A DNA stretch of 64,000 nt from Opitutaceae bacterium. GTDB lineage: Bacteria > Verrucomicrobiota > Verrucomicrobiia > Opitutales > Opitutaceae. The notes beneath the pieces are model-generated. The model was not told the DNA's origin. It saw only the letters and a list, made by a program, of their open reading frames with translations, and ran no database searches. Of this stretch, positions 11,078 through 46,650 are shown piece after piece. A program made the translations under genes and the position numbers. The stretch is from positions 853 to 64,852 of the forward strand of contig JBIKOK010000004.1 of the NCBI GenBank assembly GCA_044358025.1, read 5' to 3'. Every line of letters starts with the position of its first letter. The stretch's first letter is position 1.

Positions 11078-12241
11078 ATGACTTCCACGCGGCGCTTTTT
11101 TTTCGTGCGGACGCTCGGTCTCCTTGTCGCCCTCTCCGCTCCCCTGGCCTGGGCCGCGGAAGCACCCCCGCACCTCGCATCCGCCGTCCGCCTCACCGGT
11201 TTCACGTGGGACCGCGTCCCGCTGAATCTCCACTTCGGCAAACGCACCGCCGACCTCACCAACTCCGAGATCGATTTCATCGCCGGTCACAGCCGGCTGA
11301 TCGCCCTCGAAAAAAGCCACGGCGTCACTCCGCACGGCAGCACCGAGGCCGGGATCGCTGATTCCGCCCGCCGGATCACGCAGCGCAATCCCGCGGCCAA
11401 AGTTCTCTTCTATCTCAACGCCTTCATCAACTGGCCCGGCTACGACGCCTTCAAAACCTACCGCCCCGAGTGGACGCTCCGCACCGTGAGCGGCGAGATC
11501 GTGACGCACCCCTCCGGTACGCCGCGCCCCGATCCATCCAACGCCGACTTCCGCGAGTGGTGGTCCGAAGTCGTGGCCCACGCGAATCGCACCGCCCCGC
11601 TCGGCGGCGTGTTCGTCGACGCGCTGCCGCAGGCCATTTCACCCGCTCTCGCGAAACAGGTCGGCGCCGCCAAAGCCCGCGCCATCGTGGCCGGCCTGCG
11701 CGAGATGCTCGCGCTCACGAAACGCAAACTCGGCCCCGACCGCCTCGTGCTCGCGAACGGCCTGCGCACGACGGATTTTCGCGAGATCCTCGATTGGGAA
11801 GGCATCGACGGCGTGATGATCGAGCACTTCGGCGGCTTCAAAACGGATACACCCACCGACATCAAAGCCGACCTCGACTCCGTCGCGCTCGCCGCCGCCA
11901 AAGGAAAGTTCGTCGTGATCAAGGGCTGGCCCGGCTTCAACTGGCTGGACAAGGAAATGATGCAGCGCCCTTACGCGGAGCTCCTGAAACTCGCGCGCGA
12001 GCGCCTCACGTTCCCGCTCGCCTGCTTCCTCGTCGCCGCGCAACCCGGCTCGCACTTCTGCTACTCGTGGGGCTATACGCACACCCACGGCATGCTCGAC
12101 CCCTACGCCGAATTCGACCGCCCCCTCGGCCCGCCCCAAGCCGACGCCACCTGGGTCGGCCTCACCGCCACCCGCGAATTCGCCCACGCCTCCGTCCGGG
12201 TCGACCTCACCACCCGACAAGCCCGCATCGACTGGCACTGA
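11078..12241 (+). CDS. secreted hypothetical protein, possibly a glycoside-hydrolase-like TIM-barrel protein (family uncertain)
   Basis: 387-aa ORF with leader MTSTRRFFFVRTLGLLVALSAPLAWA and coding-like codon bias. Blocks such as GGVFVDALPQ and GIDGVMIEHFGG resemble GH114/GHL-type putative hydrolases. No confident family recognition. Confidence 0.55.
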   Translation: MTSTRRFFFVRTLGLLVALSAPLAWAAEAPPHLASAVRLTGFTWDRVPLNLHFGKRTADLTNSEIDFIAGHSRLIALEKSHGVTPHGSTEAGIADSARRITQRNPAAKVLFYLNAFINWPGYDAFKTYRPEWTLRTVSGEIVTHPSGTPRPDPSNADFREWWSEVVAHANRTAPLGGVFVDALPQAISPALAKQVGAAKARAIVAGLREMLALTKRKLGPDRLVLANGLRTTDFREILDWEGIDGVMIEHFGGFKTDTPTDIKADLDSVALAAAKGKFVVIKGWPGFNWLDKEMMQRPYAELLKLARERLTFPLACFLVAAQPGSHFCYSWGYTHTHGMLDPYAEFDRPLGPPQADATWVGLTATREFAHASVRVDLTTRQARIDWH

Positions 12242-12416
12242 TCCTCTGCCACGGCAGAGTAGTGCGAAGGCAGCATGATGAAGGATGAAATGGAGTCCCC
12301 GGCAGTTCTTCATTCCTCATTCCTCCTTCTACCTTTCCTTGCTCCTCGCCTTTGGTGATTTCCTCAAACTCCGCGTCGAGCTTCGGCAACTCGGCGGCGT
12401 TCAGGGCGAGCTTGGG

Positions 12417-12632
12417 CTAAATCTTCCCCGCCTTGGCTGAATCTAAAATCTGCGTGCTATCGAAGAGCTGGCCGGGGAGGGCGCCCATGCACTCCACGAG
12501 GTCGGCCTCGATGAGGGCGCGGCGGATGTCGCCTTCGCCGGACTGGTTGGAGGACATGCTGCCATTGGCGAGGACGAAGCCGGCACGGAGATCAGGAGGG
12601 AGGTCGCGGCCCGGGGTGTTTTTGGCGAGCAT
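12417..12632 (-). pseudogene. hsdM: type I R-M methyltransferase (HsdM) C-terminal fragment, copy A
   Basis: The 71-aa ORF contains [43 protein letters not shown], a characteristic HsdM C-proximal block. The N-terminal roughly 400 aa (AdoMet-binding and NPPF regions) are absent. Its ATG overlaps the stop of the upstream KilA-N ORF (TAATG). Confidence 0.75.
12447..12596. repeat. ~150-bp direct repeat (hsdM-derived), copy A
   Basis: Aligns with 13894..14042 at about 90% identity by eye, with one 1-nt indel. The two copies are 1447 bp apart. Confidence 0.85.
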
Positions 12633-13462
12633 TACTTCAGGCGTTTGACGTTGTTGGCGGAAAGGAGCGTGCGCATCTGAGCGATCGCGATTTCGTTCAG
12701 CGTGCGGAGGCGTTCCGGCTGGGGCAGGCCTTGACGGATGAGCACGGAATTGAGGCTTTCGAGATTGGTGAGGACGACGAGCTGCTCCAGTGGGGCGTGA
12801 TCGCGGAGGTTTCCCTCAGCTTCGGGACGAGCATCGCGCCACGGTTTCGCCGTCTGGCCGAAGAGGGCGACGTTGAGCAGATCGGCTTCGTTGGCATAGA
12901 CGAGGGCGCTCTGAGCCTTGGTGATGGCGGGCGGAAGGAGCGTCTCCTTGATCGCATCGGTGTGGATGCGGTAGTTGATTTTGGCGAGGGTGCGCTGGAG
13001 GTTCCACCCGAGCTTGAGGCGGTCGTTTTCGTCGTCCTTAAGGCGTTGAAATTCCTTGATGAGGTAGAGCTTGAATTCCACCGACACCCAGGCGGCGAAC
13101 TCGAAGGCGATGTCCTTGTGGGCATAGGTGCCGCCGTAGCGGCCTGCGCTGGAAGTGATGCCGACGGCACCAGTTTTCTCAATCCACTGCTTCGGCGTGA
13201 GGACGAAGCTGTTCAAACCAGTTTACATTCTAATCCCGTCGAATTCGACGGGATTAAAACTGGGGTTGTTGAGTCGCTCCCAAACTCCGAGAAACTCTAC
13301 CGTGCTGCGGGTGCGCAGCCAGTTCCGAATCACGTCATCCGGGTGGTCGGGATTCTTGAATTTGGCGATGTCTGTCAGGCAGAAGATGTCCTGCTGGTTC
13401 TGGGAAAGCACGGTCACAGTGCCTCCCTGAACTTCGATGCTGGTGCGTTTGGCTTTGCTCAT
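12632..13462 (-). pseudogene. KilA-N domain protein gene interrupted by an in-frame TAA
   Basis: ORFs 13223..13528 and 12632..13216 are in the same frame. They read ...VEFDGIRM*TGLNSFVLTPKQWIEKTG...GRYGGTYAHKDIAFEFAAWVSVEFKLYLIKEF. The truncated paralogue at 13459..13797 reads EFEGIKNEAGRNSFFLSAKKWIE across the same point, so the TAA at 13223..13225 sits inside the coding sequence. Confidence 0.75.
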
Positions 13463-13797
13463 CGGATTGAAATGGCCGGCTGCGGTGGTAGTGCAATGAG
13501 TCCCTTGGCGCTCGTCAGCTCGATCCATTTTTTGGCCGAGAGGAAAAAACTATTCCGGCCGGCCTCATTTTTAATTCCCTCGAATTCGAGGGAGTTAAAA
13601 CTTGGTTTGTTGATGCGTTCCCACACGCCGAGGAACAGGACGGTGTCTTTATTTTTGAGCCACTGCTCGATCAGCGCGCCTGCGCCATCGAAATTCCGCA
13701 CCATGTCGGTGAGGGAAATATAGTCTCCACCCGCCTGCGACAGCATGCCGATGGCTGTGCCTTGAACGTCAATGGTGCTTCGTTTGATTTTGCTCAT
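13459..13797 (-). pseudogene. KilA-N family N-terminal fragment (second, diverged copy, truncated)
   Basis: MSKIKRSTIDVQG...FLGVWERINKPSFNSLEFEGIKNEAGRNSFFLSAKKWIELTSAKGLIA parallels the first ~100 aa of the neighbouring copy. Similarity then stops, and the KilA-N core (GRYGGTYAH...) is missing. Confidence 0.65.
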
Positions 13798-13814
13798 GGG
13801 GTGCTATGGCCGGG

Positions 13815-14151
13815 CTATCGGCTGGGGATGGTCACGGAAGCCGCTTTTGGCGTCGGCGTTTTTGTTTTTCGCGAGGAACCAGAGGCAGCCGGGAATCTGC
13901 GTGCTGTAAAAAGCTGGCCGGGGAGGGCGACCATGCAGTCCACGAGGTCGGCCTCGATGAGGGCGCGGCGGATGTCGCCTTCGCCGGATTGGTTGGAGGA
14001 CATGCTGCCACTGGCGAGGACGTAGTCGGCGCAGAGGTCAGCGGGAGGTGTTGGCGCGCTCGGGTCCGAAGTCGGCCTCGATGCCACGCAGAGCGAGGTT
14101 CATGACGGCGAGGCGACGGGTGGTGGTGGTGGAAGATTTGGCGCGTGCCAT
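13815..14151 (-). pseudogene. hsdM: HsdM fragment, copy B, with internal deletion and frameshifts
   Basis: [22 protein letters not shown] (ORF 14038..14340) continues in another frame as [41 protein letters not shown] (ORF 13815..14087). After a further 1-nt shift it reads [26 protein letters not shown]. The NPPF region between ADYVLA and GSMSSN is deleted. The N-terminal half is absent. Confidence 0.75.
13894..14042. repeat. ~150-bp direct repeat (hsdM-derived), copy B
   Basis: Aligns with 12447..12596 and carries the same internal-deletion junction (VLA-[NS]GSMSSN) in both copies. Confidence 0.85.
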
Positions 14152-32327: not shown

Positions 32328-35300
32328 ATGAGCTCGTCCCGTTTCACCGCCCTCCTTTGCTTCTTCGCGTCCCTGCTGGCCGTTGCGCCCGCCGCCGAAC
32401 CCACCGGCTTCATCACCGGTCGCGTCCAAAACACCGATACCGGCCAATACGTGAACAACGCCCGCGTGGCCGTCCGCGGCACCAACCTCGTTGTCCTCAC
32501 CGACGAGACCGGCACCTTCCGCCTCTCCTCCGTGCCCGCCGGCGAGATCGTCCTCGAAATCTTCTTCACCGGCCTCGACCCTCTCCGCACCCCGGTCACC
32601 GTCGCCGCCGGCCAGACGCTCGAGCGCGACTTCGAACTCGGCCGCGCCCCGCGCCGCGCTCCTGCCGGCGAGGTCGTGAAACTCGACTCGTTCGTCACCT
32701 CCGCCTCGCGCGAGATGGACGGCGCGGCCATCGCCATCAACGAACAACGCTTCGCCGCCAACATCGTCACCGTCGTCGCCGCCGACGAATTCGGCGTCGT
32801 GCCCGACGGCAATATCGGCGAATTCCTCAAAATGCTTCCCGGAATCACGATGGATTATCGGGGCGGCGACCCGCGGGAAATTTCGATGAACGGCGTCTCG
32901 TCGGCCAATGTGCCCGTGACCATCGGCGGCTTCGCGCTCGCATCGTCCGAGGTCTCCGGCGCGGGCCGCAACGTCGAGCTCAACGCCATCTCGATCAACA
33001 ATCTCTCCCGCATCGAGGCCGTCTACTCGCCGACGCCCGAGACGCCCGGCTCGGCCCTCGCCGGCTCGGTCAACATGATCCCGCGCTCCGCCTTCGAGCG
33101 TTCACGGCCGATCTTCAACGGCTCCGTCTACCTCGCCGCGCGCGACAGTTCCCTCGAGGGCCGCACCGAGGGCCCCGCGCGCGAGCCCACCTGGAAGGTC
33201 CGCCCCGGCTTCGAGTTTTCCTGGATCGTGCCGGTAAACAAACGCTTCGGCTTCACCGTTTCCGCCGGCGCCTCCACCCAATACGTCGAGGGCCCGCTCC
33301 TGCAGAATACCTGGCGCGGCGCCGGCACCGCGACCAACGGCACGACCTTCCCCGACACCACGCCGGACCGCCCCTACCGCAGCGATTTTCTCGTCCGCAT
33401 CGAATCCAAGATCGCCGACCGCACCTCCTTCGCCACCACCGTGGACTACAAACTCAGCCCGACCGATCGGTTCTCGTTTTCGCTCCAATCCGGCACGTTC
33501 CACACCGACTTCAACCAGCGCTCGATCACGTTCTCGGTCGGTGGCACGGGCGCGGGAAATTTTTCCCCGGCGTTCACCCGCGGCACGACCGGCGCCGGCG
33601 AGGTGCGGCTCTCCAACGGCGGCAACCACCGCTACTCACGCACCTTCATGCCCACGCTTTCCTGGCGGCACGACGGCCCGCTCTGGAAAATGGAAACCGG
33701 CCTCGGCTCCTCCCACGCGCAAAACGAGTTTCGCAGCGTGGACAAGGGCCGCTTCGCCAGCACCCTCGCGCGCCGCACGGGCGTCACGGTTTCCTTCGCC
33801 GACAATTTCTACCTGCGCCCCAATACCATCACGGTGACCGACGGCGCGACCGGCGCAGCCGTCGATCCGTTCAACATTGCCACCTACGCGCTCAGCACCG
33901 CCGGCGCCAGCCCGCAACGCTCGCGCAACGTCCAGAACACCGCCTACGCCAATATCCGCCGCGATTTCAATCCGGGCTTTCCGCTCACGCTCAAGGGCGG
34001 TCTCGATGCCCGCTCGTCCCGCAGTGACAACCGCACGCAAAACCTCGCCGTCAACTTCGTCGGTCCCGACGGTCGCGCCTCGACCACGCCCCTCGGCAGT
34101 GACGACAGCGCCGCGGCCGTCTACGACAATTTCTACTACCAGCGCGCCGGCTTGTTTGGCGTGCCGCGCGTCCAGTGGGTCAGCAACGAGACCGTGCTCG
34201 ACGTCTATCGCGCCAACCCGGCGTGGTTCACGTCCGACGAAAACGCGCGCTACCGCGCCGAGGTCAATGCCTCCCGCCTCTCCAAAGAGATCATCTCGTC
34301 CGCCTATCTCCGTGCCGACGCGCAATTCCTCGACCGCCGCCTGAAGCTCACCGGCGGCGTGCGCGCCGAGCAGACCAACATCACCGCCAGCGGATCACTC
34401 AGCGATCCAACGCGCAACTTTCAGCGCGACGCCGCCGGCCGCGTCGTCACGGTCGCCGCCCCCACGCCCGCCAATCCCAACGCGCGCACGCCCGCCCTCA
34501 TTTTTCCCGCCACCCCGGCCAACGCCCTCGCCCTCTCGCAGCTCACGCTCCTCGACCGCGCGACGAAGGTGGAGAAGGAATACCTCCGCTGGTTCCCCAG
34601 CCTCAACGCCGGCTACAATCTCCGCGAAAACCTGATCGTCCGCGCCGCCACCTACACCTCCGTCGGCCGGCCCGCCTTCACCCAATACTCCGGCGGCGTC
34701 ACCTTGCCGAACCTCGAAGCGCCCGCGGATGCCTTGACCAACCGCATCACCGTCAACAACGCCGGCATCAAGCCGTGGACAGCCAAATCCACGAAGGTCT
34801 CGCTCGAATATTATTTTGAGCGCGTGGGCCAGATCTCCGTCGGTGCGTTCCGCCGCGACATCCGGAATTTCTTCGGCCAGACGACCTTTGACGCCACGCC
34901 GGAATTCCTCGCGCTCTACGGGCTCGACCCCGTGCTCTACGATCCCTTCACCGTCGCCACCCAGGAAAACCTTCAGACCTCCGTGCGCATGACCGGCATC
35001 GATGTGAACTACCGCCAGGCGCTGACCTTTCTCCCCCGCTGGGCGCGCGGCGTGCAGATCTTCGCCAACGGCAGCGCCCAACGCGTGATCGGCGATGCCG
35101 CCACCAATTTCAACGGCTACATCCCGCGCACCGGCAGCTGGGGCATCAGCCTCTCGCGCGAGCGCTACAACGTCCGCCTCAACTGGAACTACCTCGGCCG
35201 CCAGCGTCGCGGTATCGTCACCGGTCGCGGCATCGAGCCGGGCACCTACACGTGGGGCAGCAAACGCAGCTACATCGACCTCACCGGCGAGTATTCCCTC

Positions 35301-35456
35301 ACGCGCCGCCTCTCGCTCTTCGCGAATCTCCGCAACATCAACGACCCGACCGACGACGTGGAAATCCACGGCCCCACGACCCCCGCCGAAGCCCATTTCC
35401 GCCAGCGCGCCGAGTTCGGCTCCCTCTGGACCCTCGGCCTCAAAGGCACCTTCTGA
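32328..35456 (+). CDS. TonB-dependent outer-membrane receptor (paralogue of 14506 and 17709)
   Basis: Internal ATG at 32328 (MSSSRFTALLCFFASLLAVAPAAEP). Blocks GFITGRVQNTDTG...TDETGTFRLSSVPAG and AIAINEQRFAANI. C-terminus FGSLWTLGLKGTF. Confidence 0.9.
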   Translation: MSSSRFTALLCFFASLLAVAPAAEPTGFITGRVQNTDTGQYVNNARVAVRGTNLVVLTDETGTFRLSSVPAGEIVLEIFFTGLDPLRTPVTVAAGQTLERDFELGRAPRRAPAGEVVKLDSFVTSASREMDGAAIAINEQRFAANIVTVVAADEFGVVPDGNIGEFLKMLPGITMDYRGGDPREISMNGVSSANVPVTIGGFALASSEVSGAGRNVELNAISINNLSRIEAVYSPTPETPGSALAGSVNMIPRSAFERSRPIFNGSVYLAARDSSLEGRTEGPAREPTWKVRPGFEFSWIVPVNKRFGFTVSAGASTQYVEGPLLQNTWRGAGTATNGTTFPDTTPDRPYRSDFLVRIESKIADRTSFATTVDYKLSPTDRFSFSLQSGTFHTDFNQRSITFSVGGTGAGNFSPAFTRGTTGAGEVRLSNGGNHRYSRTFMPTLSWRHDGPLWKMETGLGSSHAQNEFRSVDKGRFASTLARRTGVTVSFADNFYLRPNTITVTDGATGAAVDPFNIATYALSTAGASPQRSRNVQNTAYANIRRDFNPGFPLTLKGGLDARSSRSDNRTQNLAVNFVGPDGRASTTPLGSDDSAAAVYDNFYYQRAGLFGVPRVQWVSNETVLDVYRANPAWFTSDENARYRAEVNASRLSKEIISSAYLRADAQFLDRRLKLTGGVRAEQTNITASGSLSDPTRNFQRDAAGRVVTVAAPTPANPNARTPALIFPATPANALALSQLTLLDRATKVEKEYLRWFPSLNAGYNLRENLIVRAATYTSVGRPAFTQYSGGVTLPNLEAPADALTNRITVNNAGIKPWTAKSTKVSLEYYFERVGQISVGAFRRDIRNFFGQTTFDATPEFLALYGLDPVLYDPFTVATQENLQTSVRMTGIDVNYRQALTFLPRWARGVQIFANGSAQRVIGDAATNFNGYIPRTGSWGISLSRERYNVRLNWNYLGRQRRGIVTGRGIEPGTYTWGSKRSYIDLTGEYSLTRRLSLFANLRNINDPTDDVEIHGPTTPAEAHFRQRAEFGSLWTLGLKGTF

Positions 35457-35457
35457 T

Positions 35458-35587
35458 TCCAATTCGCGATCAAGTTGAGACTAATCGGCCGGAAGGCAGG
35501 AGCCTGCATGCAGGCGGTTCAGCTCGCAGCCATCGCCTGCAAGCGGGCTCCTGCAAATCGCGTGAATCTCCTCTCGAAAGCGAGCGG
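35458..35587. repeat. ~130-bp hairpin-forming REP/MITE-like element, copy 2 (inverted relative to copy 1)
   Basis: It starts 2 nt after the TBDR stop. An internal inverted repeat pairs 35499..35518 with 35532..35551. It matches the reverse complement of 9769..9898. Confidence 0.85.
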
Positions 35588-35639
35588 GAATGAGCCGCAC
35601 CGCGGTAGTGGTGGAGTGGATTTTTTCCCGGCGAGATGG

Positions 35640-35700
35640 GCGGAGCGCGCCGGGGCGATCCAGCTGGATTGCCGGGGCGTCCGCGCCAGCGCAGGAACAC
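35640..35700. repeat. palindromic-core repeat element, degenerate copy 3
   Basis: It contains gcgatccagctggattgcc (35655..35672), the same 12-bp palindrome atccagctggat as copy 2. The flanks are only weakly similar. Confidence 0.4.
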
Positions 35701-36990
35701 TTTGGGGGGGGCATTGCGGGCATGCCTCGGGCGGCACTTGAAACTCAATCGGGCATGGAACGGATAACCGCAGACACAGATAGGCAGGGAGGACGCCGGT
35801 GAAAGGACGATCGGCGATCCACTCCCTCCGAACTCCGGGGCTCTGGCCTGGGTCGTGCAGCGCCTCCTTCCGCGGCCTTTGCTGCCTGCCTCAGCGTGGC
35901 CCCGAGCGCGCCGCGTGGATCCTCGGCGCAGCCGGCTGGGTCGAGTGAAAGATGCGCCACCCGACACTCGCGGTTTGGCCTTGAGCCAAAACTTGCATTA
36001 ACCCCAAACCTCCAAGCCTGACGCCGTTCGTGCCTGGAGTGCGGGCGCAGCTCAGGTGCGCGCCGGTCCGCACTGACGCCGAGGGCGTGGCCGCCGCCGC
36101 CGCGTGGTGGCGCGGACGGTGACGGTGCGGGGGGCGGGCAGGCTTTCGGCCGAGCGGCCCAAAGCGGGTGACCGTCCCTGTGGGCTCGCCTCCCTTTTCT
36201 CCAGGGCCGCCTGCCTCAAGCACGGAGTCGATGGAAATTTCCTATACGTGGGCAGCCGGGAACTGACTTCGTGGCCCATGGGGCCTGGTTCTCATCTCCG
36301 ATGGCGGGTTCGCCCCCTCGAAAATCGCCCAACGTCGCAAGGCAGAGCGAGTCGGTCGTCTCCCGGACTTGCCAGAGGGCGCGGGTATCACGCGCTCGCC
36401 GGGCCTGGGCCGCCGCCCCCCGACGCATCGGCTCCGCCGGCATTGGCCGGGCTGCAGCGTGCCGGCCCAGCGTGCGTCCAGGATATCGCAGAATCCACGA
36501 TACCCGGATCAAGGTTCACCCGATTGTAAGGTCGGGAATCGGACGATATATTTTGTCTCAAATGAGGCCGAGCAGCGTGAGTTACGTGATGAAAAAAAAC
36601 CCTGCTCCTTTCCACGGGAACCGTAATCGCGCCGCCGTCCCGCCGGTTTTCCCGGGCCCCGAGACGGGCGAAGGGCCGGCCCAATCCGCCTGGCTCCGCC
36701 AAGGTCTCCGGCCGGGCCTCCGGCGGCGGGTGCCGCGCAGGGTCGCGTATCCCGTCCACTCGCGGGCGGGCGGTGAGTGCGGCGATGACGCCGTTGCCAC
36801 CAAGGGCGTCGGGGGCGTGGGCCGGGGCCAACGGGTGCGCGCAGCGGCCGAGCACCGCGGTGTGGCGCCACCTTTTCCGCGTTGCTCCATTTTCGCCGCC
36901 CGCTGCGCCCGCGGGCCCGGTGTTCGTTGTCCGTCGGTCCTTAGCCCGTCGGCCTCCTCGGGGTCGTTTCAATTTGTGTGACCTCCCGCA

Positions 36991-37515
36991 TTGATCACTC
37001 ATTTCCCCAGATCTCGTCGCACCGCCAGCTTCACGATGGTCGAAGTGTTGCTGGCGTCGTTTATCTTGCTGGTGGGATTCATCGGTCTGATGGAGGCGGT
37101 CACGGTGTCCGCCAACACGATGGATCATGCCCGACGGCAGACCCTCGCCACCCAGATCCTCAGCCACGAGATCAAGAAGCTGTATCTCGCCCCGTGGACG
37201 AACGGCAGCACCGGCATCAACGATCTGACCACGGCCAAGATCAGCCTTCCGGTCGACAGTCAGTTCGATCAGGCCAGGCTCGCCGTGGGCGACGACCTGA
37301 GCAGCACGGCCCTCGTGCGTTTTTCACTCGCGCGCACCGTGACGAGCCCCGATCCGATCCCCGGTTTGCTCCGCGAGGTCAATTTTACCGTGACCTGGAT
37401 CGTGGGGACGAGTCGTCGCAAAACCGATGGCACGCTGCTTTCGTTCACGTTTACCCGCACGAATTCGGCGTGGTACGGCAAAAACGGCCTGCACCTCAGC
37501 CACCGGTCCTCGTGA
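36991..37515 (+). CDS. prepilin-type N-terminal methylation-domain protein (GspI/PilV-like minor pseudopilin)
   Basis: TTG start. The class-III signal is RSRRTAS|FTMVEVLLASFILLVGFIGLMEAV, with Glu at +5 and a hydrophobic helix. Small (174 aa) beta-rich remainder. Confidence 0.75.
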   Translation: MITHFPRSRRTASFTMVEVLLASFILLVGFIGLMEAVTVSANTMDHARRQTLATQILSHEIKKLYLAPWTNGSTGINDLTTAKISLPVDSQFDQARLAVGDDLSSTALVRFSLARTVTSPDPIPGLLREVNFTVTWIVGTSRRKTDGTLLSFTFTRTNSAWYGKNGLHLSHRSS

Positions 37516-38123
37516 GCAGTCCATTCCCCAGCCGGCGCGCCGGCTGGACGCTCAGCGAGTTGATGATCGGCGTCTGCCTATCGATGATCGTCATGAATGC
37601 CGTGCTCGCCAGTTATGTCTTTGTGGCGCGCGCCTACACCCGGACGGTCGCGTTCGGGTCGACGAACCAGCCGACCCTGGAAGCCCAGGGCAGGCGGACC
37701 TTGGCCTCTTTTGCCCAAGACGTACAAATGACGTCGGCACTCGGCAGTCCCACCGCTTCGTCGGTCACGCTCACAGTGCCCAGCAGCATGGGAGGCACGA
37801 AGCATGTCACCTATTATTTCAACAGCACGGCGTCACCGGTGACGGTCAGCGGCTACGCCGTCCCGGCCATGTCGCTCGCGCGGATCGATGTCACCACCGG
37901 CACGGGCCTCACGTTGCATAGCTCCCTGCTCACGTGTGTCTTTAGCTACTACGATTCGTCCAACAATCCGTACACAAGCTATGTCAACCATCTGCCGGGG
38001 ATCAAACAGATGTCCGTGGCTTTCACCTCGCAGTCCGGCACCGCCACCAACGGTACGCTGACCCGCATCTACCAAGTCGCGTCGCCAAGGTTGGCACTTC
38101 GCAACAAGGCCTTCCTCCCGTGA
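37512..38123 (+). CDS. prepilin-type N-terminal methylation-domain protein (GspJ/PilW-like minor pseudopilin)
   Basis: The GTG at 37512 overlaps the upstream stop (GTGA). Signal PSRRAG|WTLSELMIGVCLSMIVMNAVLA with Glu at +5. Confidence 0.75.
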   Translation: MSSPFPSRRAGWTLSELMIGVCLSMIVMNAVLASYVFVARAYTRTVAFGSTNQPTLEAQGRRTLASFAQDVQMTSALGSPTASSVTLTVPSSMGGTKHVTYYFNSTASPVTVSGYAVPAMSLARIDVTTGTGLTLHSSLLTCVFSYYDSSNNPYTSYVNHLPGIKQMSVAFTSQSGTATNGTLTRIYQVASPRLALRNKAFLP

Positions 38124-39949
38124 TGCGTCCTCAGAAAAAAGCCGGCTCGGTCACCCTCGTCGCACTGTCCTGCGTGACGGTCCTGGCCATCGCGGGGGCG
38201 AGTTTTCTCTCGGTCACCAACCTCGCCATGAAGCTGGGCCATCGCTCCTACGCAAAGGACGTGAGCTACCAACTGGCCGAGATGGGCCTCGAGCAGGCGC
38301 TGCGCGCGTACAACGACAACGCGACAGCGGCCGCGGTCGCCAATGCGTTCAGCAGTTGGACGCTCTCCGGCATCACCGCCACCAAATCCCTCTCCATCGC
38401 CAGCAGCCGCTACGGCACCAGCGGCATCACCACCGCGGTCAATATCCGCGTCGATCATTACTTGGGCACAAGAAAGGCGACGCCGTGGAACGTGCTGACC
38501 ACTTATGCCGTGAACGATTTCGTGTGGCATCAGGGCGTCTGGTATCTGTGCAAGGCCGCGCCCCCGAGCAAAGAGTCCCCGGCCAACACCGCTTATTGGA
38601 CCAGCGCTCCGGAATCTTGGAATTCCGCCGCCAACTACCGCATCGGCAACATTGTCCTGTTCGGGGGCACCACCTACACCTGCAAGGTCGCCCACGTGAG
38701 CCAGGCTCCGCCCAACAGCACGTACTGGAACGTTCCTGCCGCCGTCCTGCCGAAGAGTGCGCTCACCGCCTACGTCGTGGATAACGTGATCTTTTCCGGC
38801 GGGATGCCCTACCGCTGCATTTCGGCGCACTCCAATCAGCTTCCGCCCAATCCCACTTACTGGCTCAGCGCCCCGGTGATTTACGCGGAGGGCGTCGCCG
38901 TGCTGCCCGACCGCCATGCGACCACCCTCAAGACCCAGTTGCGCGCGACCCTGGCGCCGGCCACGCTCTTTCCCAACGCCGCCGGCGCCACCACCTATAC
39001 GAACCTGGCTTCCGGCGGCGTGGTGGACAGCTATAATTCGGTCACGGGCGCGTATAACGTCGGCGGCAATATCGGTTCATCCGCCGTCTTGGCCGGTGAG
39101 AATCGGTCGGGCCTCGCCGTCTCCATCTTGACGGCAAGGGTCAATGGCTACGTGGCCGCCCCTTCGACTTCCTCGTCACCCTTTTCCCCCAATTGGAACT
39201 ATGCTACCGCCACGGCCATCGTCACGTCGACGCCGGCGCCCACGATTCCCGCCACCCGGGTCGATCTGACTCGCGTCAGCCGGAGTCCGCATGTCCCGCA
39301 GTTCGACATCAGGCCCGTGACCGCGCCCAACTCGTTGTCGAACCCGGCCGGCACCGTGACGCTTCCGCGCGCGGGCGACATCGTTTCCGCCGACGGAAAG
39401 TATTATTACGCGACCTCTGCCACGCTCGATATCAACTCCGGGGACATCCTGAACATCGATGGTCCCGTGGTCATCGACGTCCAGCCCAGCACGGCCCAAT
39501 GGTGGATTCAGGGCTCGGGTAAAATCGTGATTGGCGCACCCACGGTTCCGATCAAACCCACCGCTTCGCTCGAAATCCACGTATCCAGCTTGCTCGATAT
39601 TGGCAGCGATACGACCGGCGGGATTCAGAATCTGACCCTGGACCCCACTCGTTGCGTCATTCTCAGCACGAACACCATCAATGTTTCGGGCAAAAATTGG
39701 TTCTGGCCGATTATTCCGTTCTACGGCGTGGTCTACATGCCCAACGCCTTTCTGCACGTCTGGAACACCGGCTACAACCTGCCGATTTACGGCGCCCTGT
39801 CGGCCAAGAATATCTACTTCGAAAGCGTCGCCGCGCTGCATTACGACACCGCCCTCCGTACCGCGGTGATCAGCGGGGTCGACACCCCGTATCGGCTCAC
39901 CGAGTGGCGCGAACTGACCGACCCGAGCGATCGGGTCACGCTGCCCTAG
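38120..39949 (+). CDS. GspK/PilX-like large pseudopilin with three tandem chitin-binding-domain-like (CBM5/12-type) repeats
   Basis: The start overlaps the upstream stop (GTGATG). The N-terminus KKAGSVTLVALSCVTVLAIAGASFL is pilin-like but lacks Glu+5, as in GspK/PilX. Residues 123-248 (38486..38863) form three repeats of the pattern W..(x)Y.(V/I).(N/D).V...G..Y.C..AH.S...P.N..YW. Confidence 0.7.
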   Translation: MMRPQKKAGSVTLVALSCVTVLAIAGASFLSVTNLAMKLGHRSYAKDVSYQLAEMGLEQALRAYNDNATAAAVANAFSSWTLSGITATKSLSIASSRYGTSGITTAVNIRVDHYLGTRKATPWNVLTTYAVNDFVWHQGVWYLCKAAPPSKESPANTAYWTSAPESWNSAANYRIGNIVLFGGTTYTCKVAHVSQAPPNSTYWNVPAAVLPKSALTAYVVDNVIFSGGMPYRCISAHSNQLPPNPTYWLSAPVIYAEGVAVLPDRHATTLKTQLRATLAPATLFPNAAGATTYTNLASGGVVDSYNSVTGAYNVGGNIGSSAVLAGENRSGLAVSILTARVNGYVAAPSTSSSPFSPNWNYATATAIVTSTPAPTIPATRVDLTRVSRSPHVPQFDIRPVTAPNSLSNPAGTVTLPRAGDIVSADGKYYYATSATLDINSGDILNIDGPVVIDVQPSTAQWWIQGSGKIVIGAPTVPIKPTASLEIHVSSLLDIGSDTTGGIQNLTLDPTRCVILSTNTINVSGKNWFWPIIPFYGVVYMPNAFLHVWNTGYNLPIYGALSAKNIYFESVAALHYDTALRTAVISGVDTPYRLTEWRELTDPSDRVTLP

Positions 39950-40151
39950 GTCGCTAGTGCGCCCCGCGGCCACCTCCCCCCAAGGAGCAGCCAACGGCTC
40001 AGCCCCGCACCCGGGTGGGCCACGGCAGATCCGATCACACCCGACCGCCACGGCCGCAACCGCCGATCCCCCCGACCGAAAGTCCCGGGCCGCCCGCGGC
40101 GATTCCCATTGAGCCGCGGCGGACGACTCACGAGGGTGGGCCGGACCGAGC

Positions 40152-42089
40152 ATGAGACCCCGCCTGACCCTACCGACAACTTTGCCCCGCGGCGTGCTGG
40201 CCCTGGTCGTTTTCGGCTTGGCGCCATGCTTGTCGCTTCCCACCAAAGCGGAGCCGGCCGACGACGGGGACCTTTCCGCGCTCCAGGCTGAGGCGAAAAA
40301 GACTTTCCGCGATCAAGTCACTCCTTTTGTCCGCACGTATTGCCTGAACTGTCACGGCAACCGGAAAACCAAGGGCGGGGTCAACTTCGAACCCGCACTC
40401 AAGGCCCCCGGCAACGCAGCCTTCAGCCAGCGGTGGAAGCAGGCCCTCGCCAACGTCAAGGCCCACGACATGCCGCCGGAAGACGCGCCAAAACAGCCCA
40501 CCGACGCCGAGCGGCAGACGTTCCTCGCTTGGATTGGCCAGATCAAGTTTCTCAGCCCGAAGGACCCCGGTCCCTTTGTGCTCCGTCGCCTGACCAAGGC
40601 GGAATACGGCAACACGCTGCACGATCTCTTCGGCGTCGATCCGGCGATCGCCCGCGGGTTGCCGGATGAAGTGTTCGGTGAGGGCTATCTCAATACGCTG
40701 TCACCGCTCCAGTCCGAACAGTATCTCGGCATCGCCCACGAGGTCGTGGATCGCATCGTGGCCCCCGGCGATATGCCGCCGACTCCGGTGCAACGGCGGC
40801 TCTTCGGTGAACCCCCGGCGCCCGGTGCCGATGCCCGCGCGGCCGCGCGCCAAGTTGCCCGCTCACTCGCCCGCGCCGCGTATCGCCGCCCGCCCACGGA
40901 GGCGGAGCTGGACGTGCTCGGGGGCGTCTTCGATTTGGGCCGCGACCACCACCTCGCCTACCCCGCCGCCCTCGGCCTGATGCTCAAAGCGGTGCTCGTT
41001 TCCCCGCAGTTCTTGTTTATCACCCCGGCCACTGAGGTTGCGGCGGGTCCCGCCATCGTGCCGCTGGACGACTATCAACTCGCGTCGCGGCTGTCCTATC
41101 TGCTGTGGGCCACGCTGCCGGACGCCGAGCTCGCAGGCTTGGCCGACCGCGGCACGTTGCACGAGCCCGCGGTTCTGCAGGCGCAGGTGCAGCGTTTGCT
41201 CCAAGATCCGCGGTCCCGCGCGCTGTTCGATGGTTTCGGGGCGCAGTGGCTCGGCGTCGGGGAACTGGCCGGTAAAACCTTCGATCCGGTCAAATTCCCG
41301 CAGATGACCGGTGAGCTGCGCGCCGCAATGTATGACGAGGTGCGGCTCTTCTTCGACAGCATCGTGCGCACCAACCGGAGCGTCGTCGGTTTCGTCGACA
41401 GCGACTACACTTTCCTCAACGGGCCGCTGGCGAAAATCTACGGTCTGGAAAACACCGTCACCGGCCCGGCCATGCGCCGGGTGCAGCTGACCGATGCGAA
41501 CCGCGGCGGTGTTCTCGGCATGCCGGGCATTCTGGCGACGACCTCGTTTCCCCACCGCACCAGCGCCGTCAAACGCGGCGTGTGGGTCCTCGAACAGGTG
41601 CTCGGCGAACGCGTCCCGCCCGCCCCGCCGAACGTCCCCGCCCTCGAAAAACAGGACGACGCGCAGGTCGCGAACCTCACCCTGCGCCAGCGCACCGAAC
41701 TGCACCGCACGGACTCCGTCTGCACCAACTGCCACAAAATCCTCGATCCGATCGGATTCGGCCTGGAAAACTTCGACGCCATCGGGCGCTGGCGCGACTC
41801 CGACGATGCGGGCGGGGCGATCGACGCCGCCGGCGAGCTGCCCGGCGGAAAACGTTTTTCGTCGCCCAGAGAACTCAAGGCGATCATCGCCGCCCGACAC
41901 GAGGAACTCGCCCGCAACCTCACGGAAAGACTCCTGGCCTACGCCCTCTGCCGCCCGCTCGAAGGCTATGACGAAATCGTGGTGGACCGCCTGATGGAAA
42001 CCATCGCCAAGGACGGCTACCGCCTGCAAGGTCTCATCACCGCCATCGTCACCAGCTACCCCTTCACGCAGCGTCGCGTCCACCCTTAG
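40152..42089 (+). CDS. DUF1592/DUF1595/DUF1587/DUF1588/DUF1585-family protein with N-terminal cytochrome-like CxxCH
   Basis: [17 protein letters not shown], then [22 protein letters not shown] (DUF1587-like), [33 protein letters not shown] (DUF1588-like) and [25 protein letters not shown] (DUF1585-like). Confidence 0.85.
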
Positions 42090-44364: not shown

Positions 44365-46650
44365 GTGCTGGCCGGCACCATTTTACTCGTCGCCCTGGGC
44401 ACCGCGGCAACCTTTTGGGTTTTGCGTCAGCTGGAGACCGCGCGCCCCGAACACCAGCGAGTCATCACCCTCACCGACCGCGCCGAAGAGTTGCTGCGCG
44501 CCGTGGGCGATGCGGAGACCGGGCAACGCGGTTTCTGCCTCACCGGCGACGAGACCTTCCTGGCCCCGTATCTGTCCGTGCGGGACAAGGTCGCCGCAGA
44601 ACGGCGGGAATTGCTGCCACTCACCAAGCTCGACGCGGCGCACCAGCGGCTGAACGCGGTAAATCCGATACTGGAGGAGAAAATGCGCTCGATGACCGCG
44701 GTCATCGAGCTGCGCCGCCGCGGAGACCTGCCGGGTGTCATCAGCGCGGTCAGCAGCCGAAAGGGCAAGCAGTGGATGGATTCGATCCGGGCCGAGTTCA
44801 CGGGCTGCATCCAGATTGAGCGAGCGGGCTCCGGCCGGCGCGATGCGCAGTTTCTCGCCCAGATGCGCCGGCTGTTCGCGATCGCCGTCGCCGTCGGCCT
44901 GCTGGCGGCGCTCGCCGTCCTTGCGTTCGCTTTTTTATTTTACCGCGAGACCCAGCACCGGATCAAAGCGCTGCTACATCGCGAAACCCAGCGCCTGCTT
45001 GAGCTCCGGACGGACACCGCAGATCGCCTCCAGCAGGCCAACGCCACGCTGCTGATCAGCCAGAACCAGCTGGTCGCATCGCTCAAGGATAACGGCGACC
45101 TGAAGACCGCGCTCGACGAGCACGCCATCGTGGCGATCACCGATTCGCGCGGCCGGATCGGGTCCGTGAACGATAAGTTTTGCGCGATTTCCCAGTCTAC
45201 GCGCGCCGAGTTGGTCGGCCAAGACCACCGCCTGATCAACTCGGGCCACCACCCGCCGGAGTTTATCCACGCATTGTGAACGACCCTCACCCGCGGCCAC
45301 GTGGGGCACGGCGAAATCAAGGATCGGGCCCAGGACGGCTCGTTCTACTCGGTGGACACCACGATCGTGCCGTTTCTCGGAGATGAGGGGCAACCCCGGC
45401 AATATTTGGCCATCCGCGCGGATATCACCGAGCGCAAGCAGGTGGAGCCGAGCTGCGGGCCAGCGACGATCGCATGCGTCTGGCGACCGAGGCGACCGGC
45501 GTGGGCATTGGGGAATGGAATCTTCTGACGAACACGCTGCGGTGGGATGCCCAGATGTTTCGGATCTACGGTGTCGCTCCGGCGGCGGACGAATCGGTGC
45601 CCTACACAACCTGGCAGGATTTGGTCGTGCCGGAAGATTTGCCCCAACAGGAAGCCACCGTGCAGGACACGATCCGCCGGCGCGGCAGGAGCCAGCGGGA
45701 ATTCCGTATCCGGCGGCCCGGCCGTCCGGCTGTCCGTACCCTCCAATCCGTGGAAACCGTCCGGCTCAACGCCGAGGGCAGGCCGAATGGATGCTCGGGA
45801 CCCATCTCGACATCACGCTGCGCAAGGAAGCGGAAGTGGCCTTGCAGACCAGCGAGGACCGGTTCCGGACCCTGGCCAATTCCATGTCCCAGCTGGCGTG
45901 GATCGCCCGCGCCGACGGCTTCATTTTCTGGTACAACCGCCGCTGGTTCGAATACACGGGAAAATCCCCGGAAGAAATGGAAGGCTGGGGCTGGCAGAGC
46001 GTGCACGATCCCGCGGTGCTCCCGGAGGTAATGGTGCAATGGCCGGCCGCAATCGCCGCGGGCACCCCGTTCGAAATGTATCTCCCCCTCCGCGCCGCCG
46101 ACGGAAGCTTCCGTACTTTTCTGACGCGCGGGGAGCCGTTGCAGGATGCGGCCGGCCAGGTGATCCAGTGGTTTGGCACCAACACGGACGTGACGGCGCT
46201 GAAGCAGGCGAAGGACGCGATGCGCCGGTTCAACACCGAACTCGAGCAACGCGTGGCGGACCGCACGGCCCAGCTCGAAGCCAGCAACCGCGAACTCGAA
46301 TCGTTCTCCTACTCGGTCTCGCACGATCTGCGGACGCCCGTGCGGACCATCGACGGATTTTCCCTGGCCGTGCTGGCGGACTTCGGGCCGCAGCTGCCGG
46401 CCGAGGGCCGCCGCTATTCGCAGATCATCCGCCGTTCGGCCCAGAACATGGGCGAGCTGATCGACGCCCTGCTGGCCTTCGCGCAGCTGAAGCGCTAGGA
46501 CCTGACCAAGCGCCCGATCGACACCCACCCACTCGTGAGCACGGTCCTCGCCGAGCTCGGGGCGCCGTGGCCGGACCGAATGGTCGAGGTTCGGCTGGAA
46601 GCCTTGCCGCCCAGTTTCGGCGACCCGACGAAGGTCCACCGCACCGCGCG
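44365..46650 (+). pseudogene. CHASE3-PAS-PAS-PAS-HisKA sensor histidine kinase, disrupted by two in-frame stops and two frameshifts and lacking the ATPase domain
   Basis: CHASE3 block DAETGQRGFCLTGDETFLAPY. TGA at 45277..45279 sits where PAS domains have Trp ([29 protein letters not shown]). A 1-nt loss near 45445..45450 separates ERKQVE from [16 protein letters not shown] 1-nt loss near 45786..45788 separates NAEGRP from WMLGTHLDITLRKEAE. HisKA block SFSYSVSHDLRTP. TAG at 46496..46498 (AQLKR*DLTKRPID). No N/G1/G2 boxes follow GDPTKV. Confidence 0.8.

Follow-up and report, generated by a model that had tools for sequence, protein, structure and literature searches.

We analysed a 64-kb stretch of DNA from a freshwater Opitutaceae (Verrucomicrobia) genome (assembly GCA_044358025.1, contig JBIKOK010000004.1, positions 853 to 64,852; hereafter the window) and found that it carries three overlapping genes on the + strand, g1, g2 and g3, which span positions 36991-39949 of the window and encode two small pilin-like proteins (g1 and g2) and one large pilin-anchored protein (g3). 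The first gene, g1 (36991-37515), encodes a GspI/PilV-like minor pilin of 174 aa; its open reading frame (ORF) opens right behind an in-frame TGA, and the first start codon in it is TTG. The second, g2 (37512-38123, GTG start), encodes a GspJ/PilW-like minor pilin of 203 aa, and the third, g3 (from 38120 or 38123 to 39949), a modular pilin-like protein of 609 or 608 aa in the GspK/PilX position. A preliminary description of this DNA had reported three coupled genes with GTGA overlaps at 37512..37515 and 38120..38123. The first overlap, which holds the stop of g1 and the start of g2, is exact. At the second junction the coupling stands, but the sequence at 38120-38125 reads GTGATG, and the likelier start of g3 is ATG at 38123 (1-nt overlap) rather than GTG at 38120, because its homologues begin with "MR" and the 95% identical protein P0001 has 608 aa. 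The genes g2 and g3 are coupled whichever start is used.

Both g1 and g2 carry class III signal peptides, characterized by a short basic leader, Gly, Ala or Ser at position -1, a hydrophobic residue at +1, Glu at +5 and about 20 hydrophobic residues. In g1 the leader MITHFPRSRRTAS is followed by FTMVE (RRTAS|FTMVEVLL; Glu+5 encoded at 37042-37044), and in g2 a leader ending in SRRAG is followed by WTLSE (RRAG|WTLSELMI; Glu+5 at 37557-37559). The N-terminus of g3 reads KKAG|SVTLVAL and lacks Glu+5. The signals read earlier in the first two genes (S|FTMVE and G|WTLSE), and the missing glutamate of the third, are thus confirmed, and a six-frame regular-expression search found the sites in g1 and g2 to be the only class III motif sites in the window. 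A genome scan for relatives, surveyed by tblastn and gene calls, identified 57 loci (L numbers below), all in Opitutaceae or Opitutae, and across these 57 species a [G/A/S]|FT[LIM][VI]E motif is near-invariant in the g1 and g2 families. As a separate observation, the +1 position of g2 (37545-37547 in the window), where Phe is normally invariant, is unusually variable among the window and its closest orthologues: the window has Trp there and L009 has Phe, while L006, L007 and L010 have Cys.

Profile searches related g1 to GspI and PilV. The window protein matched the NCBIfam hidden Markov model (HMM) gspI (TIGR01707) with an E-value of 2.3e-4 (21.6 bits against a cut-off of 44) and PilV (TIGR02523) with 4.5e-4 (20.7 bits against 52), only the N-terminal ~60 residues aligning in each case, and its match to N_methyl (PF07963/TIGR02532 class) reached 15.7 bits, under the cut-off of 21.2. 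Among the homologues of g1, 20 of 23 matched PilV (best 1.2e-7) and 18 of 23 matched GspI at E<0.01. Sequence-profile searches of the PDB with the g1 and the g2 alignments matched only the generic pilin N-terminus.

For g2 the evidence is structural. The AlphaFold2 model of g2 (predicted local distance difference test score, pLDDT, 81.6) has a predicted GspJ-type fold: in a Foldseek search of the PDB the best five matches were all XcpW/GspJ chains (9a1f_S, 5bw0_A, 3nje_A/B and 6utu_H), with probabilities of 0.98-1.0 and template modelling (TM) scores of 0.41-0.56, and an XcpVWX ternary complex entry is among them. Homologues of g2 are named PilW or PulJ by JGI, and family members matched HpsC, PRK10557 and generic pilin models only. 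N_methyl is reached by homologues; the L001 homologue scored 26.9 bits, and PF07963 is precomputed in many others.

The third protein is modular, which the preliminary description had missed. Its AlphaFold2 model (pLDDT 87.2, predicted TM score 0.84) opens with a long, hydrophobic, alpha-1-type helix of 57 residues (aa 9-65, 38144..38314, + strand; assigned by DSSP on the model) and has a small sheet; G|SV.LVAL is conserved in the g3 family, and Glu5 occurs in none of 54 aligned sequences. There follow three tandem CBM5/12 modules (carbohydrate-binding modules of the chitin-binding type; aa ~120-251, 38477..38872), which matched Pfam CBM_5_12 with an E-value of 6.6e-10 and 39.3 bits, above the cut-off of 26.2. 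With Foldseek the tandem carbohydrate-binding modules of a Vibrio chitin-oligosaccharide deacetylase and chitinase chitin-binding domains were matched with a probability of 1.0, and phage ChiC_BD proteins in BFVD also matched this region. By HMM and by modelled fold, g3 carries CBM5/12 modules, and ligand binding is predicted. The remainder of g3 is a beta-rich domain of ~350 residues (aa 253-609, 38876..39946) that contains Pfam DUF7305 (PF23981; aa 419-581, 39374-39862). The DUF7305 match is borderline in the window protein (27.1 bits against a cut-off of 27) and reaches 88.8 bits in relatives, and DUF7305 is precomputed in nearly all g3 homologues. The family of this C-terminal domain is narrow, with 306 clusters at E<=1e-3 among 1.84 billion representative proteins, and the named g3 homologues all belong to Opitutaceae or Opitutae. 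Foldseek searches of the PDB and BFVD gave no convincing structural match for it, only local matches at the level of CBM5/12. By analogy, g3 would fit the concept of the modular pilin (PMC8179133).

A CBM5/12-like unit (..FWPxWNSxxxYxxxxVVxYNGAxYRCxxAHxNxxPxNxxYW..) is also inserted in many g1 homologues (L003, L013, L015, L016, L020-L024, L026-L028, L042, L043, L047, L050 and L052), and therefore two of the three putative tip proteins bear carbohydrate-binding modules in those species. The g1 of the window is without the insertion.

The order g1-g2-g3 was invariant across the 57 loci. At about 45 of them the triplet is followed, directly or past a small insertion, by PilM/N/O-like (GspL/M-like) genes, namely "M" (~350 aa), a bitopic "N" (~200 aa), "O" (~195 aa) and a fourth gene (~190 aa). 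The N proteins matched Pfam PilN with an E-value of 0.037, and O scored 26.9 bits with Pfam PilO (cut-off 22) and matched GspM weakly. The fusion of M and N into one protein of 543 aa with a GspL-like architecture, seen in Lacunisphaera-type genomes, gives a type II secretion system (T2SS)-like order I-J-K-L-M, whereas the closest relatives of the window encode M and N separately. Further genes occur at many loci: an upstream pilin (N_methyl E 7e-5), a 269-aa gene, aroK and a 324-aa gene. Linkage is looser in other lineages: L031 has no M within 7.7 kb, and the MNOP genes of L029 lie 5 kb upstream. A regular-expression search of 1.06 Mb of loci from the 57 genomes found no ORF with a GspE/PilB-type Walker A motif within 10 kb on either side of any module; even the complete modules depend on genes elsewhere.

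Variants of these modules were seen in several genomes. Opitutus sp. GAS368 (L001, 16149-21695) and a Lacunisphaera metagenome-assembled genome (MAG; L048, 7960-13344) have a second complete tandem module, I-J-K-MN-O-P, whose K protein has DUF7305 and no CBM5/12. A cluster of a HicA toxin and a Phd/YefM antitoxin lies between the K and M-N genes of L003, L004 and L005 (11855-12971 in L003 coordinates), and insertions of 1.5-7 kb at the junction of K with M-N recur in other loci.

The free-standing cassette of the preliminary description therefore proved to be a peculiarity of one derived clade, most Opitutaceae triplets lying directly upstream of PilM/N/O-like genes. In the window g3 is immediately followed by a DUF1592/DUF1552 pair, which had been reported before and which Pfam confirmed; this pair lies directly behind g3 only in the window clade (the window, L006, L007, L009 and L010/L036; 90-97% identity), and a polysaccharide-utilisation-like context is limited to the same clade. 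In a neighbour-joining tree built without bootstrap, the window clade is nested inside the complete modules, beside L008 and L012. We conclude that the orphan state is derived and lineage-specific. Furthermore, MAG bin-1378 holds two copies, the orphan L010/L036 and a complete paralogous module, L019 (g3 57% identical), whose M is 82% and whose N and O are 72% identical to those of L008. M is better conserved (66-83% identity) than the faster-evolving g3 (51-66%). A recent duplication of the resident module was considered as the origin of the orphan and rejected: the g3 of the window shares 62% identity with its counterparts in L008 and L012 but 57% with that of L019. On these sequence identities the orphan would be an old paralogue or a lateral acquisition.

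Ratios of nonsynonymous to synonymous substitution rates (dN/dS), computed against L006 and L009, were 0.24-0.41 for g1, 0.17-0.34 for g2 and 0.14-0.24 for g3. The orphan genes overall (0.14-0.41) are thus comparable to the neighbouring DUF1592 gene (0.17-0.21), and therefore they are maintained under purifying selection and are not decaying.

Taken together, these results suggest that the triplet is an accessory priming or tip set for a type IV filament that is built by a machine encoded elsewhere in the genome and could be either a type IV pilus or a T2SS-like pseudopilus, a reading to which we assign a probability of roughly 0.6. The g1 and g2 proteins would be processed by a prepilin peptidase and, together with g3, probably as a trimer, would nucleate the filament as its first, tip-located subunits. 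The g3 protein may stand atop the filament via its N-terminal helix, because it is without Glu5, as expected of a subunit with nothing above it, and there it would display its three CBM5/12 modules and the DUF7305 beta-rich domain, so that the tip could bind an insoluble, chitin-like polysaccharide. The machine, including PilMNO-like proteins, would be supplied from elsewhere in the genome, and the set itself would be a diverged paralogue of the triplet that heads I-J-K-PilM-PilN-PilO(-P) modules, retained in a polysaccharide-utilisation neighbourhood. The GspI-J-K or PilV-W-X tip complex proposed in the preliminary description is partly borne out, by the gene order, by the weak GspI/PilV matches of g1, by the XcpW fold predicted for g2 and by the Glu5-less helix of g3, but g3 showed no detectable similarity to GspK or PilX.

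A number of results weigh against this reading. HMM searches of the three proteins, which the preliminary description had proposed, gave GspI, PilV and N_methyl matches in the window that all fall below the curated cut-offs and lie mainly in the N-terminal ~60 residues; the weak GspI/PilV affinity of g1 was recovered, but g2 of the window had no Pfam or NCBIfam match, N_methyl included, and none of ten N-terminal fragments from the g3 family matched PilX_N at E<=10. One distant g3 relative did match PilX_N (0.005). The Foldseek E-values of g2 are marginal (5e-3 to 9e-2). Structural searches with g3 found no match to GspK, PilX, PilY1 or ComZ structures, and no GspK/XcpX chain was among the top 50 Foldseek matches; because no similarity to GspK, PilX or PilX_N was found, g3 is K/PilX-like by its position, its N-terminal helix and the missing Glu5, and not by detectable homology. 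The window clade has atypical signal residues, Ser-1 in g1 and Trp+1 in g2. As the preliminary description had stated, the window lacks filament machinery: Pfam scans of all its sizeable ORFs with coding-type, high GC content at third codon positions (GC3) detected no ATPase, platform protein, secretin, prepilin peptidase or further or major pilin. The flanks of the related modules, 10 kb to either side, likewise yielded no ATPase, platform protein, secretin, peptidase or major pilin, and hence a partner machine has to be assumed. Among the genes behind the triplet, M had no sequence-level match to PilM or GspL, a PDB profile search included, and its size and position are what suggest PilM. 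Finally, the two-copy evidence from bin-1378 depends on correct binning of that MAG.

As to the kind of filament, the gene order and the M-N fusions of relatives point to a T2SS pseudopilus, and the carbohydrate-binding modules point to surface exposure. It would be somewhat unlikely, in our view, that the triplet is the GspI-J-K tip of a T2SS pseudopilus and not of a surface pilus, working as a periplasmic piston whose g3 engages or pushes carbohydrate-active exoproteins or polysaccharide through the secretin. The relatives' order I-J-K, then fused M+N and a GspM/PilO-like gene, is the canonical T2SS order, the O proteins weakly match GspM models, the predicted fold of g2 is like XcpW of a T2SS, and an Opitutales isolate is known to have a T2SS and many PulG-like pseudopilins, one of them alginate-induced (PMC13274419). 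However, the polymers that CBM5/12 modules bind are insoluble and extracellular, and such binding is hard to square with a normally periplasmic tip; moreover, g3 has no GspK-like fold. In addition, M and N are separate in the closest relatives of the window, as in type IV pili, and no secretin or GspE adjoins any module.

A bolder reading, which we consider unlikely, is that Opitutaceae have a type IV filament particular to their lineage, with a tip pilin that is itself a polysaccharide adhesin built of CBM5/12 arrays and DUF7305, and that their genomes keep several exchangeable tip cassettes; the orphan would be co-regulated with the polysaccharide-utilisation genes and would put a substrate-specific "grappling" tip on a shared machine when the polymer is available. 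Quite improbable is the proposal that the three proteins are not filament subunits but membrane-anchored or secreted carbohydrate-binding proteins with pilin-like anchors, which capture polysaccharide together with the products of the neighbouring TonB-dependent receptor and sulfatase genes. The neighbourhood itself would suit such a role, g3 consists mostly of carbohydrate-binding modules and a beta-rich domain with no match to a pilin head, and Verrucomicrobia and Planctomycetes carry very many proteins with pilin signals whose role is unknown (PMC13274419). Yet the partners conserved in 57 species are PilM/N/O-like genes and not TonB-dependent receptors or carbohydrate-active enzymes, the polysaccharide-utilisation context is confined to the window clade, and g2 has the predicted GspJ fold. 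It is very improbable that the triplet is decaying and non-functional, left behind when a duplicated or rearranged module lost its PilMNO genes. In favour of this, the orphan state is derived and branches among complete modules, the signals have unusual residues (Ser-1, and Trp or Cys at +1), and the HMM scores of g1, g2 and g3 in the window are lower than those of their homologues. Against it, none of the three ORFs is disrupted in four independent assemblies (85-95% identity), their dN/dS is on par with that of the DUF1592 neighbour, and the start-stop overlaps and a conserved upstream leader are kept.

The accessory tip set favoured here has several known counterparts. It resembles GspI-GspJ-GspK (XcpV-W-X; PDB 6utu, 5bw0 and 3nje) in its coupled genes and their order of a small pilin, a medium pilin and a large Glu5-less protein, in the predicted XcpW fold of g2, in the weak GspI HMM match of g1 and in the GspL/M-like genes that come next in relatives. 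It differs in that g3 has three CBM5/12 modules and DUF7305 with no match to the GspK alpha-domain or a pilin fold, that no GspH, GspG or core T2SS genes stand beside the triplet and that the HMM scores are below curated cut-offs. With the FimU-PilVWX-PilY1 complexes of type IVa pili it shares an operon unlinked from motor genes, more than one tip set per genome, a putative adhesin at the tip, PilV matches in the g1 family and g2 homologues named PilW, whereas it has three genes only, no PilY1 and no PilX_N, with the adhesive modules built into the PilX-position protein. The modular type IV pilins (Streptococcus sanguinis PilB/PilC, CofB and ComZ; PMC8179133) likewise join a pilin N-terminus to grafted lectin or carbohydrate-binding modules at a predicted tip; the combination of three CBM5/12 modules with DUF7305 is not named in the text of that paper, and g3 lacks the IPR012902/N_methyl signature and Glu5.

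Within the phylum, the pseudopilins of Verruconatronum alginivorum (PMC13274419) and the families of the "Verru_Chthon cassette" (B, C and D) catalogued in NCBIfam (TIGR02596/02598/02599) are also verrucomicrobial pilin-signal proteins away from a T2SS core, in multi-copy cassettes or polysaccharide clusters. Unlike the triplet, the former are PulG-like singletons and the latter belong to a different, four-protein cassette. The g1, g2 and g3 proteins of the window did not match the Verru_Chthon models at E<=1; weak N-terminal matches were seen in 9 of 23 g1 homologues and 1 of 45 g2 homologues.

For type IVa pili it is normal that minor-pilin operons lie apart from the machinery genes, and since a lack of nearby machinery is ordinary in this sense, the main claim to novelty in the preliminary description, a tip cassette standing alone, is weak. 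It has been previously reported that Myxococcus xanthus has three alternative minor-pilin/PilY1 tip clusters (PMC7541494), that the concept of modular tip pilins bearing carbohydrate-binding modules is established (PMC8179133), and that pseudopilins occur inside Opitutales polysaccharide clusters, as in Verruconatronum alginivorum, one Opitutales genome having 67 PulG-like copies, one of them alginate-induced, with its T2SS located elsewhere (PMC13274419). Minor-pilin tip complexes, unlinked operons, alternative tip sets, modular carbohydrate-binding pilins and pseudopilins in Opitutales polysaccharide clusters are therefore already known, and the triplet is most likely a modest variation on a known theme and not a new kind of system. 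What is new is an Opitutaceae-restricted K-position protein built of CBM5/12 arrays and DUF7305, and a spare copy of the triplet, diverged and under selection, that has moved into a polysaccharide-utilisation neighbourhood. Our literature searches found no paper mentioning DUF7305, none on the "Verru_Chthon cassette" and none describing a CBM5/12-bearing pilin. If the proposed reading is correct, type IV filaments would be tied directly to the capture of particulate polysaccharide in abundant freshwater Verrucomicrobia, and DUF7305 would gain its first functional context, as a tip-adhesin domain of a pilin-like protein. The case would also show how tip sets can duplicate and move into substrate-utilisation neighbourhoods. 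It does not overturn current understanding.

Upstream of g1 lies a stretch of 1.53 kb (35457-36990) without any ORF of coding-type GC3, in line with the ~1.4 kb of ORF-less sequence reported earlier, in which orthologues differ by non-triplet indels. It contains a candidate sigma-70-type promoter on the + strand (TTGTAA-17-TATATT, 36524..36552), ~440 nt upstream of g1, which falls in a block conserved at four orthologous loci. It is the sole match to the consensus in 35400-40300, and with one match found against 0.7 expected it does not exceed chance by count; promoter function of 36524-36552 is putative. This site would imply a conserved leader of ~440 nt, and the non-coding sequence that follows it (36553..36990, + strand) shows ~88% column identity among the four orthologues, with non-triplet indels. 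A conserved hairpin with a T-run lies at 36950-36976, immediately ahead of the TTG start of g1. An Rfam scan of 35000-40500 gave no match beyond one sub-threshold chance one.

Two further candidates in this region were rejected. A sensor kinase and a sigma-54-dependent response regulator, similar to PilS/PilR, lie divergently upstream of the complete module at L008 (5252-8085, - strand), and this pair prompted a search for a sigma-54 promoter upstream of g1, which returned fewer matches than shuffled sequences and none that was convincing. Remnants of lost genes were sought in the upstream 1.5 kb by tblastx and blastn against all related loci, and the result was noise and two short repeat-like matches. 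The segments 35498-35556 and 35631-35672 are 75-89% identical to intergenic spots of unrelated Opitutaceae loci, and 35498-35556 matches on both strands, as a palindromic element of the repetitive extragenic palindromic (REP) type or a terminator would.

The wider window is polysaccharide-utilisation-like in its gene content, with five TonB-dependent receptors, five sulfatases, a fucosidase and several esterases, and the orphan triplet is placed between a TonB-dependent receptor and other polysaccharide-utilisation genes. The window also encodes a response regulator and a CHASE3/PAS kinase. At 44365-46498 a sensor kinase is apparently split into a CHASE3 ORF and a following PAS-HisKA ORF, with HATPase_c not detected. 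A frameshift, a pseudogene or an assembly error could account for the split; in L006, too, the orthologue is called in pieces. At 12001-14000 the GC content is lower (0.60), the GC skew is positive and there is a KilA-N ORF (12632-13213, - strand), and this segment may be a remnant of a mobile element or prophage.

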